Source of the DNA: Escherichia phage RB16
Sequence record: NC_014467.1
DNA: 64,000 bases
Reading direction: 5' to 3' (one strand)
Positions 56,929-58,454 of this stretch are shown one piece after another. Below the pieces are notes generated by a model, which saw nothing but the letters and a program-made list of their open reading frames with translations, was not told where the DNA came from and searched no databases. Positions within the stretch are counted from its first letter, which is position 1. Each line of letters begins with the position of its first letter. The position numbers and the translations under genes are program-made.

Positions 56929-57292
56929 ACCAAGTAAGACTGTGCGCCTTATCCGTTGGGAAGGCAACGAACTCCGTTATGAAGACGGCGACCGCGAATT
57001 CGTCCATGAAATGCTTGCGCATAATCTGGGATTCAAAAACGCCGCACTGGTGATGATGCAACAAACCAGCGATGAAGACACCTGGCAATGCGTCATTCTC
57101 GATCTGGACAAAAACAAGGAATACACCGAAGATGAACTGTTTGCGCTCACAGAGAACGCTACAGCGCGTCAGAAGTGCTTCATGATCGATATGCCTCGCG
57201 AGAACTACGAGAATATCAAGAAAGCCCGTAAACAGAACAAGAACAACGTGTTCGACCTGTTCATGGGCTATCATGAAGAAACTACGGCCTAA
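56918..57292 (+). CDS. hypothetical protein
   Basis: 124 aa ORF. Confidence 0.4.
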   Translation: MKNEPSKTVRLIRWEGNELRYEDGDREFVHEMLAHNLGFKNAALVMMQQTSDEDTWQCVILDLDKNKEYTEDELFALTENATARQKCFMIDMPRENYENIKKARKQNKNNVFDLFMGYHEETTA

Positions 57293-58392
57293 GCCTCACT
57301 TGTTTTGCTGGTGTCGTTAGTAGCCGCTGCCACCTGTACACATTCCAATGTTTGCAGGTGGAAATCTTTTGATACGTCGCGGACACATTCAACGATCAGA
57401 TACTTCCCTGAATATTCATCCCCTAACACCTCAATCAATGCCCCCACTTTAACATCCATTCGACCCTGATTGATATCAAACTTAATCCTTTTCTCATAGC
57501 TGGATAACAGTTGACACTTCACTGCCTGGAACGGTTGCCCCTGTTTGTCTGGGTTCTGGAAGTTGTTCTCATATACCGCGTTCCGGTTCATGGTGATCCA
57601 TGCGTTTTCAATATCGGTACTCGCCAGGATATCACTATACAGCTTTTTATCCGTCATTGAGAAACTAAAGAAACTTGCATCCACTAACAGGGTAGTGTTA
57701 TCCTTATGCGTAATGTATTCCGCTTTAGTGAATACCAAAGTGTCACCTAAAAACGGGTTACTAACGTTGAACTTGTAAGCCTTTATCGGGGTTTGTGCGA
57801 GGATCTCCGTATTGCTTTTCATAAAGATACCGGAACCATCTTCCCACAGATAACAGAAGTCAGACGAGTCTACGCTCTGCCCGTTGTCACGGATGTAATC
57901 AAACACGGTTTCATACGTCCCGCTTAGGCAAGCCGGAGGAATACGCACGTTTGATGCGTCGATCGGCGGCGTGATTAACTTCATATCATTATACAGTGCC
58001 GTCATACACTCTGTAATCGTCTGCACGGCGTTGTTACTGAACGAACGGGAAAACTTACGACGAAACACCGTATGCACCGGAGAAAGGTTTAGGCGCAGTA
58101 TAGAACGGTTCATATCATCGGTTTCGACGTTTGAGTACAGAACACCGTAGTAATGTTGTTCTAACGTCTGATTATACTGGAAGGATACCTGAATAATCGG
58201 TTTCTCTGTCAACTGATAGATTAACTGGTTATCATAGATCTGCATCAATGTTTCAGAAGTACCGTTAATGATGGTTTTCTCACTCATTGAGACAAGGGCA
58301 GGTAACAATTCAAGATAGACGTTATCAGCGAACTTTTCATATGTTGGATATAATTTAACCGACACGACGCGGTTTATAACTTTACTGGACAT
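57289..58392 (-). CDS. 27: baseplate hub subunit (gp27-like)
   Basis: 367 aa (T4 gp27 is 391 aa); N-terminal SVKLY..Y and IIQVS-like segments resemble remembered gp27; divergent from gp28-29-48-54; RBS GGAGG. Confidence 0.5.
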   Translation of the reverse strand: MSSKVINRVVSVKLYPTYEKFADNVYLELLPALVSMSEKTIINGTSETLMQIYDNQLIYQLTEKPIIQVSFQYNQTLEQHYYGVLYSNVETDDMNRSILRLNLSPVHTVFRRKFSRSFSNNAVQTITECMTALYNDMKLITPPIDASNVRIPPACLSGTYETVFDYIRDNGQSVDSSDFCYLWEDGSGIFMKSNTEILAQTPIKAYKFNVSNPFLGDTLVFTKAEYITHKDNTTLLVDASFFSFSMTDKKLYSDILASTDIENAWITMNRNAVYENNFQNPDKQGQPFQAVKCQLLSSYEKRIKFDINQGRMDVKVGALIEVLGDEYSGKYLIVECVRDVSKDFHLQTLECVQVAAATNDTSKTSEA

Positions 58393-58454
58393 TAGACATC
58401 CTCCCTTTATATTCTATTTACTAAATAGTAAATATCGGGATACTTGAGGCGATC

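Follow-up and report, generated by a model that had tools for sequence, protein, structure and literature searches.

A probable bidirectional late-promoter region between the divergent baseplate hub genes gp27 and gp28 of a Pseudotevenvirus

Introduction

Late promoters of bacteriophage T4 consist of a single element, TATAAATA, which spans positions -13 to -6 and is read by the gp55-polymerase together with gp33 and the gp45 clamp (PMC1524935; PMC2988020). In RB43 and other T4-like phages, there is little conservation at position -13, and Aeh1 uses CTAAATA (PMC1524935; PMC2988020). RB43 shows the most exceptions to the T4 gene order (Nolan et al. 2006, PMC1524935); for this phage the same authors listed the late promoter Pl:60263 (plus strand, 60263-60305, score 10.7; Additional file 5). 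No late-promoter work or transcript maps on GAP161 or Slopekvirus were found in the literature. The subject of this study is the 62-bp gap between the start codons of the baseplate hub genes gp27 and gp28 in a 64,000-nucleotide stretch of phage DNA (sequence record NC_014467.1), termed the window in the following. An initial annotation had described a 367-amino-acid minus-strand open reading frame (ORF) resembling gp27, which points away from a gp28-gp29-gp48-gp54 operon across a TAAATA-rich gap without the exact T4 octamer, and had offered two explanations: either late promoters differ slightly in this phage or transcription initiates elsewhere. According to the evidence given below, the gap probably serves as a compact bidirectional late-promoter region of Pseudotevenvirus.

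The divergence of gp27 and gp28 is already known from the annotations of RB43 (NC_007023), RB16, GAP161 (NC_019398) and Slopekvirus (phT4A, KP15 group), and genes arranged in this way are ordinary for this known genus. Over the locus, identities of 97-98.5% connect the window with Cronobacter phages (Invicta; GAP161, 97%), several Enterobacter and Klebsiella phages and Escherichia phage UPEC03. The phage is a Pseudotevenvirus (RB43/RB16/GAP161 group, family Straboviridae), another isolate of that genus.

The gp27/gp28 locus

The genes at the locus and the gap between them are as follows.

57289..58392, minus strand: gp27, baseplate hub subunit (367 amino acids, ATG start, stop codon TAG at 57289-57291)
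58393-58454, both strands: intergenic control region separating the start codons of the divergent genes gp27 and gp28 (62 bp, 66% A+T)
58455..59033, plus strand: gp28, baseplate distal hub subunit, heading the plus-strand late operon (192 amino acids; PHROG 1140, 4e-47; Pfam PF11110; GAP161_094)
59030-60781, plus strand: gp29 (PHROG 7361)
60793-61887, plus strand: gp48 (PHROG 230/PF11091)
61896-62759, plus strand: gp54 (PHROG 45/PF06841)

The minus-strand ORF is indeed gp27. It matches Pfam PF09097 (gp27 domain 1; 85.9 bits, 4e-24, cut-off 27, residues 10-191), PHROG 1135 "baseplate hub" (3e-130, residues 1-365), the solved T4 gp27 chain 1k28_D (6.8e-25, residues 10-212) and 9f4a_BE, a "putative baseplate hub subunit" (2.6e-31, residues 10-277). 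The sequence identity is 99.7% to the annotated gp27 of GAP161 and only about 24% to that of T4. The expected hub-gene neighbourhood (gp28, gp29, gp48, gp54, gp51 and gp26) is present, and a gp5 homologue is found in GAP161. The divergent orientation of gp27 and the gp28-gp29-gp48-gp54 genes was borne out by the ORF strands and, for the identity of the downstream genes, by PHROG and Pfam matches and the GAP161 annotation. In the latter, the ligase gene is followed by five small ORFs, by gp27 in the opposite orientation and then by gp28-gp29-gp48-gp54-gp51-gp26-gp25; the same same-strand order from gp28 to gp25 is found in the window (58455-63530 and beyond). The gp28-gp29-gp48-gp54 operon extends as far as a hairpin at 62759-62782, with gp51 as the next gene. 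A co-directional, overlapping 51-27-28 order as in T4 was not found, gp27 being opposite to gp28 and gp51 located after gp54. This departure is a feature of the gene order and not of the gp27 protein family.

Three copies of TAAATA lie in the gap, within the string CTATTTACTAAATAGTAAATATC (58414-58436). The gap contains the following elements.

58415..58422, minus strand: predicted -10 element of the gp27 late promoter, reading AGTAAATA (core 58420->58415, G at -12)
58420..58427, plus strand: late promoter candidate a of the gp28 operon, reading ACTAAATA (core 58422-58427, C58421 at -12)
58427..58434, plus strand: late promoter candidate b of the gp28 operon, reading AGTAAATA (core 58429-58434)
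58402..58440: imperfect 39-bp palindrome centred on C58421, found by repeat search (19-nt arms 58402-58420 and 58422-58440, 79% complementary)
58405->58399, minus strand: gp27 ribosome-binding site GGGAGGA, 6 nt before the ATG (read from the sequence)
58446-58449, plus strand: gp28 ribosome-binding site GAGG, 5 nt before the ATG (read from the sequence)

The gp27 element is located 28 nt before the gp27 ATG and is the sole minus-strand TAAATA between 36177 and 64000. Candidates a and b precede the gp28 ATG by 33 and 26 nt, respectively; all three cores (26-33 nt from the ATGs) thus fall inside the range of 20-71 nt seen at other late genes. The gp27 element and candidate a abut as TATTTA-C-TAAATA and share base pair 58421 as position -12. 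The repeat search also revealed a perfect 9-nt inverted repeat, TATTTACTA/TAGTAAATA (58415-58423 and 58426-58434). When start sites are placed by the T4 spacing rule, with TATAAATA spanning -13 to -6 (PMC1524935), transcription would be expected to begin at approximately 58408-58410 on the minus strand and at approximately 58433 (candidate a) or A58440 (candidate b) on the plus strand.

The accumulation of TAAATA in the gap is in contrast to its scarcity elsewhere in the window. Only 17 copies were counted on both strands, compared to 44.9 expected (first-order Markov, P=2e-6), and three of these lie in the gap, for which the background rate predicts 0.014. In composition-matched shuffles of the gap, at least three copies occurred in 0.02% and one per strand in 0.4% of the cases. 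The strict octamer TATAAATA, reported as absent from the gap, is in fact missing from both strands of the whole 64-kb window (2.4 matches expected). The depletion of TAAATA and the absence of TATAAATA fit selection against spurious late promoters in a region of mostly early genes.

Late-promoter consensus in the RB43/GAP161/Slopekvirus lineage

The window encodes the proteins known to read late promoters in T4.

26962-27624: gp45, clamp (PHROG 223, 8e-77)
29627-29875: gp33, co-activator (PHROG 254, 4e-27)
31407-31913: gp55, late sigma factor (PHROG 234, 1e-56)

The upstream regions of 55 late-type genes were compared in GAP161, the genome of which was assembled from four parts. Of the 82 TAAATA sites of this genome, 24 are located 15-75 nt upstream of a late-gene start on the correct strand, compared to 0.77 expected (binomial P=5e-29). 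At the 21 sites outside the gap, position -13 is occupied by C (9), T (8), A (3) or G (1), position -12 by A (12), C (8) or G (1) and never by T, and the sixth base past the core is A in 13 cases. The octamer TATAAATA was found at only 2 of these 21 sites. The -12 C of candidate a is hence the base found at eight of them, and the A at +1 of candidate b (A58440) agrees with 13. At -12, the orthologous promoters of gp3 and gp6 carry A in RB43 but C in GAP161, so that either base is evidently tolerated. A late-promoter consensus [T/C][A/C]TAAATA, relaxed compared to TATAAATA, is supported in silico for the RB43/GAP161/Slopekvirus lineage. Since GAP161 late genes carry this sequence and its core is present on both strands of the gap, the first of the two earlier explanations, slightly different late promoters, is favoured.

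A second back-to-back pair of divergent late cores, TATTTATGCTCTAAATA, was noticed in GAP161 (139405-139422) between uvsW (minus strand) and inh (plus strand), with a spacing different from that of the gp27/gp28 pair.

The published RB43 prediction Pl:60263 maps to the homologous RB43 gap. Its 43-nt frame puts the core at offset 26-27, which corresponds to the second plus-strand copy, AGTAAATA. A CTAAATA site before RB43 gp53 is absent from the published list of RB43 late promoters, an omission that probably goes back to the use of the T4 octamer as the seed of the model. Among seven checked windows of that list, three (103713, 103923 and 109410) are without any TAAATA.

Conservation of the gap

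A 20-mer containing all three cores (TATTTACTAAATAGTAAATA, 58415-58434) is unchanged in 11 distinct gap sequences of Pseudotevenvirus and Slopekvirus. The flanks between the 20-mer and the ribosome-binding sites vary by substitutions, by a 2-bp deletion in RB43-type phages and by insertions of 7-9 nt in Slopekvirus. The CCTCC block at the gp27 ribosome-binding site is retained in all relatives, and TTGAGGC at the gp28 ribosome-binding site is kept across both genera. An exact scan of IMG/VR for the 20-mer gave 12 matches, 11 of which are the gp27/gp28 gap of related phages. The twelfth is located at 7460-7479 of IMGVR_UViG_3300025886_000425, just downstream of tRNA-Ala and tRNA-Ser genes. This contig is unrelated and AT-rich, and it encodes a TFIIB-like ORF and low-complexity proteins; it appears giant-virus-like, and the match is probably due to chance.

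Proposed mode of transcription

In view of the gene identities, the geometry of the gap, the enrichment of the motif upstream of late genes and the conservation, the following use of the elements, start sites and plus-strand copies is inferred. Late in infection, host RNA polymerase would carry gp55, with gp33 and the sliding clamp gp45, and would recognise a single -10-type element, which in this group would be [T/C][A/C]TAAATA rather than TATAAATA. From the minus-strand AGTAAATA (58422->58415), a gp27 mRNA beginning near 58408-58410 would be made, with GGGAGGA in a leader of approximately 17 nt. On the plus strand, the gp28-gp29-gp48-gp54 mRNA would begin near 58433 or 58440, upstream of GAGG, under the direction of ACTAAATA and/or AGTAAATA.

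Several points weigh against a bidirectional late-promoter region. The gp27 element has to be regarded as an atypical variant, since G at -12 was found at only one of the 21 other putative GAP161 sites, that of the endolysin gene. A weight matrix built from the flanks of these 21 sites separates late-gene from background TAAATA sites poorly and cannot rank candidates; the three gap candidates score between -3.5 and +0.3 on it, inside both distributions. Just downstream of the second plus-strand core lies the G+C-rich sequence TCGGG, whereas T4 late promoters typically have an A+T-rich stretch (PMC2988020). Which of the two plus-strand copies is used cannot be told from conservation because the three cores overlap one another. 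Furthermore, the hidden Markov model (HMM) of Nolan et al. (2006) lists no minus-strand site for RB43 gp27 (PMC1524935), and transcript 5' ends were not found in the literature for any phage of the group.

Alternative explanations

An origin of the gp27 and/or gp28 operon transcripts outside the gap, by long antisense or read-through transcription and with a palindrome that is not a start region, appears very unlikely. In favour of it, no terminator lies between the upstream plus-strand early genes and the 3' end of gp27, where the stop codons overlap (57289-57292); plus-strand read-through could therefore reach gp28 via antisense gp27. The atypical -12 G of the gp27 element points in the same direction. 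However, the minus strand contains no other TAAATA from the gap to the window end at 64000, which leaves gp27 without an alternative late element for at least 5.5 kb upstream, and all of the minus strand upstream is antisense to gp28-gp25. Initiation elsewhere, the second of the earlier explanations, is hence unlikely for gp27. Moreover, the spacing between the cores and the two ribosome-binding sites is the usual one, and the flanks drift around an invariant 20-mer. About as improbable is that the inverted repeat TATTTACTA-AA-TAGTAAATA represents an operator for a dimeric regulator or a structural DNA signal, instead of or besides a promoter pair. The perfect 9-nt arms, the symmetry over 39 bp and the absolute conservation would be in line with such a role, but the symmetry is already explained, because an inverted repeat inevitably arises where a strand-specific -10 element is present in two divergent copies. 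Among related phages in IMG/VR the 20-mer occurs only at the gp27/gp28 locus, there is no known candidate for the regulator, and similar back-to-back elements exist elsewhere, namely with other spacing between uvsW and inh of GAP161 and as an equivalent palindrome at T4 26|51.

A host sigma-70-type promoter driving gp28 (TGGACA-16 nt-TATATT, 58386-58413, plus strand) has an even smaller probability, despite agreement with the consensus at 10 of 12 positions. Sigma-70 and terminator scans, which covered 56000-60000 and 54000-64000, gave matches at chance level (9 sigma-70 matches compared to 8.7 expected in the scanned region). The -35 hexamer of this site falls within the gp27 coding sequence, its TATATT is destroyed by the 2-bp deletion in RB43-type relatives and not kept in Slopekvirus, and the site is unlike the phage's own early-promoter box at 55846-55897. 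Least probable of all, to the point of being negligible, is a chance clustering of TAAATA in an A+T-rich spacer. At 66% A+T, at least one TAAATA is indeed obtained in 12.6% of the gap shuffles, but the low frequency of shuffles with three copies or with one per strand, together with the strong depletion of TAAATA in the rest of the window, speaks against it; the invariance of the 20-mer between genera and the enrichment effectively refute this explanation.

Neighbouring features

At the 3' end of gp27, its stop codon (TAG, minus strand) and that of a convergent plus-strand ORF (56918..57292, TAA) overlap in CTAA (57289-57292). No terminator is present at this position, and transcription of the small plus-strand ORFs upstream would continue into gp27 in antisense orientation. 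A weak 5-bp hairpin (57589-57602) is the only one inside gp27. An early-promoter-like element, composed of GCACTTTTTGCTAAAAA, TTGCAT, 17 nt and TATATT, is located right after the DNA ligase stop codon (55846-55897), and a strong terminator hairpin with a 13-bp stem (55859-55888) lies within its spacer. The upstream box of this element recurs in GAP161 (55224; 92953, minus strand; upstream of orf219).

Between the gp54 stop codon and the gp51 ribosome-binding site, a hairpin GGGGCGTAAGCCCC is followed by TTTT (62759-62782); near-identical copies precede gp13, gp36 and rI in GAP161. The gp51-gp26-gp25 genes have no TAAATA in their own gap; their transcription may rely on read-through or start from internal cores at 63415 and 63962. 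An Rfam scan of 54000-64000 gave no match at the gathering score.

Implications

The missing TATAAATA is no anomaly but reflects the relaxed consensus of the RB43/GAP161/Slopekvirus lineage. Many late promoters of these phages escape HMMs seeded from the T4 octamer and searches for its exact sequence, as do, for example, the predicted sites before RB43 gp53 and before gp27 described here. The three predicted transcription start sites are concrete and testable. Compared to the existing annotation, the additions made here are modest and comprise the gp27 element on the minus strand, the -12 base pair common to two of the elements, the [T/C][A/C]TAAATA consensus and the parallel to T4 26|51. They have little import beyond annotation; correct operon maps are of some practical value, as phages of this type are therapeutic candidates against Klebsiella, Enterobacter and Cronobacter.

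Comparison with known systems

At the locus, there is essentially no difference between the window and RB43, RB16, GAP161 or Slopekvirus: the annotated Pseudotevenvirus and Slopekvirus loci have the same gene order, a gap of 60-69 bp (69 bp in Slopekvirus phT4A, NC_055712, where gp27 and gp28 are divergent as well) and the identical 20-mer. The published RB43 prediction is the one that goes without a minus-strand gp27 promoter. The search for related loci with gp27 yielded nine, and wider taxon sampling was taken from a phage collection. The identity of gp27 is 95-100% inside Pseudotevenvirus, 75-76% to Slopekvirus and below 38% (mostly about 25%) in all other T4-like phages. In T4 (Tequatrovirus), PG7 (Karamvirus), AS-gz (Tulanevirus), Potts1 (Marfavirus) and 3014 (Lazarusvirus), the order is 25<-26<-|->51->27->28->29->48, with ->54 after 48 in all five of these Straboviridae genera. 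Since T4 and the four other genera keep 51->27->28, the divergence of gp27 and gp28 is a derived trait common to Pseudotevenvirus and Slopekvirus. Converting the T4 order into that of the window would take at least two or three inversions or transpositions.

The predicted elements resemble T4 late promoters in being single -10-type elements without a -35 region, with an identical TAAATA core and a position 20-70 nt upstream of late structural genes. They differ in the bases at -13 (T/C, A at the gap) and -12 (A/C, C or G at the gap) and in the absence of the octamer from the window. The consensus of Aeromonas phage Aeh1, CTAAATA, is the closest published variant (PMC1524935).

The closest counterpart of the gap as a whole is the T4 26|51 gap, which contains the self-complementary 12-mer TATTTATAAATA with the octamer on both strands. 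Since the same 12-mer was found in PG7, Potts1 and Acinetobacter phage 3014, it is the norm of the family that the hub cluster contains a bidirectional late promoter. Divergent late baseplate-hub genes flanking a short gap are found here as well (gp27 and gp28, 62 bp), and the two gaps have in common the palindromic back-to-back late -10 elements, a length of 50-70 bp and the location in the same baseplate-hub cluster. In both, one arm carries a second tandem core (towards 26 in T4, towards gp28 in the window) and the other arm reads TAAATAGAATA..AAAGG (towards 51-27 in T4, towards gp27 in the window). Aligned in this orientation, the window gap towards gp27 (TATTTA-C-TATTTAGTAAATAGAATATAAAGG) and the T4 gap towards 51 (TATTTATCATATTTA-TAAATAGAATA-AAAGG) gave a local alignment score of 38, reached in 0 of 2000 shuffles, and the opposite pairing a score of 29 (2 of 2000). 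Unlike T4 26|51, the window has an extra C:G pair at the dyad (TATTTA-C-TAAATA) and 28|27 as flanking genes instead of 26|51. TATTTATAAATA with its overlapping octamers does not occur in the window gap, and neither strand reads TATAAATA because of this one extra pair.

The window gap is compatible with an origin from the bidirectional hub promoter of the family through insertion of a single base pair at the dyad, and such an origin is possible judging from the alignment. Against common descent, the similarity of the flanks is restricted to T4, with no counterpart in PG7, Potts1 or 3014, and a common function constrains both sequences. A further-reaching version seems rather doubtful to us. In it, the palindrome would be a displaced T4-family 26|51 promoter with a 1-bp dyad insertion and a shared -12 pair (C for gp28, G for gp27), the overlap of the two sites would allow polymerase to bind in one orientation or the other but not in both at once, and the C/G asymmetry and the extra tandem core would set the output of gp27 relative to that of the other hub genes. 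More generally, it would seem from the comparison that, although genes were rearranged in this lineage, the bidirectional promoter architecture of the T4 baseplate-hub cluster was retained.

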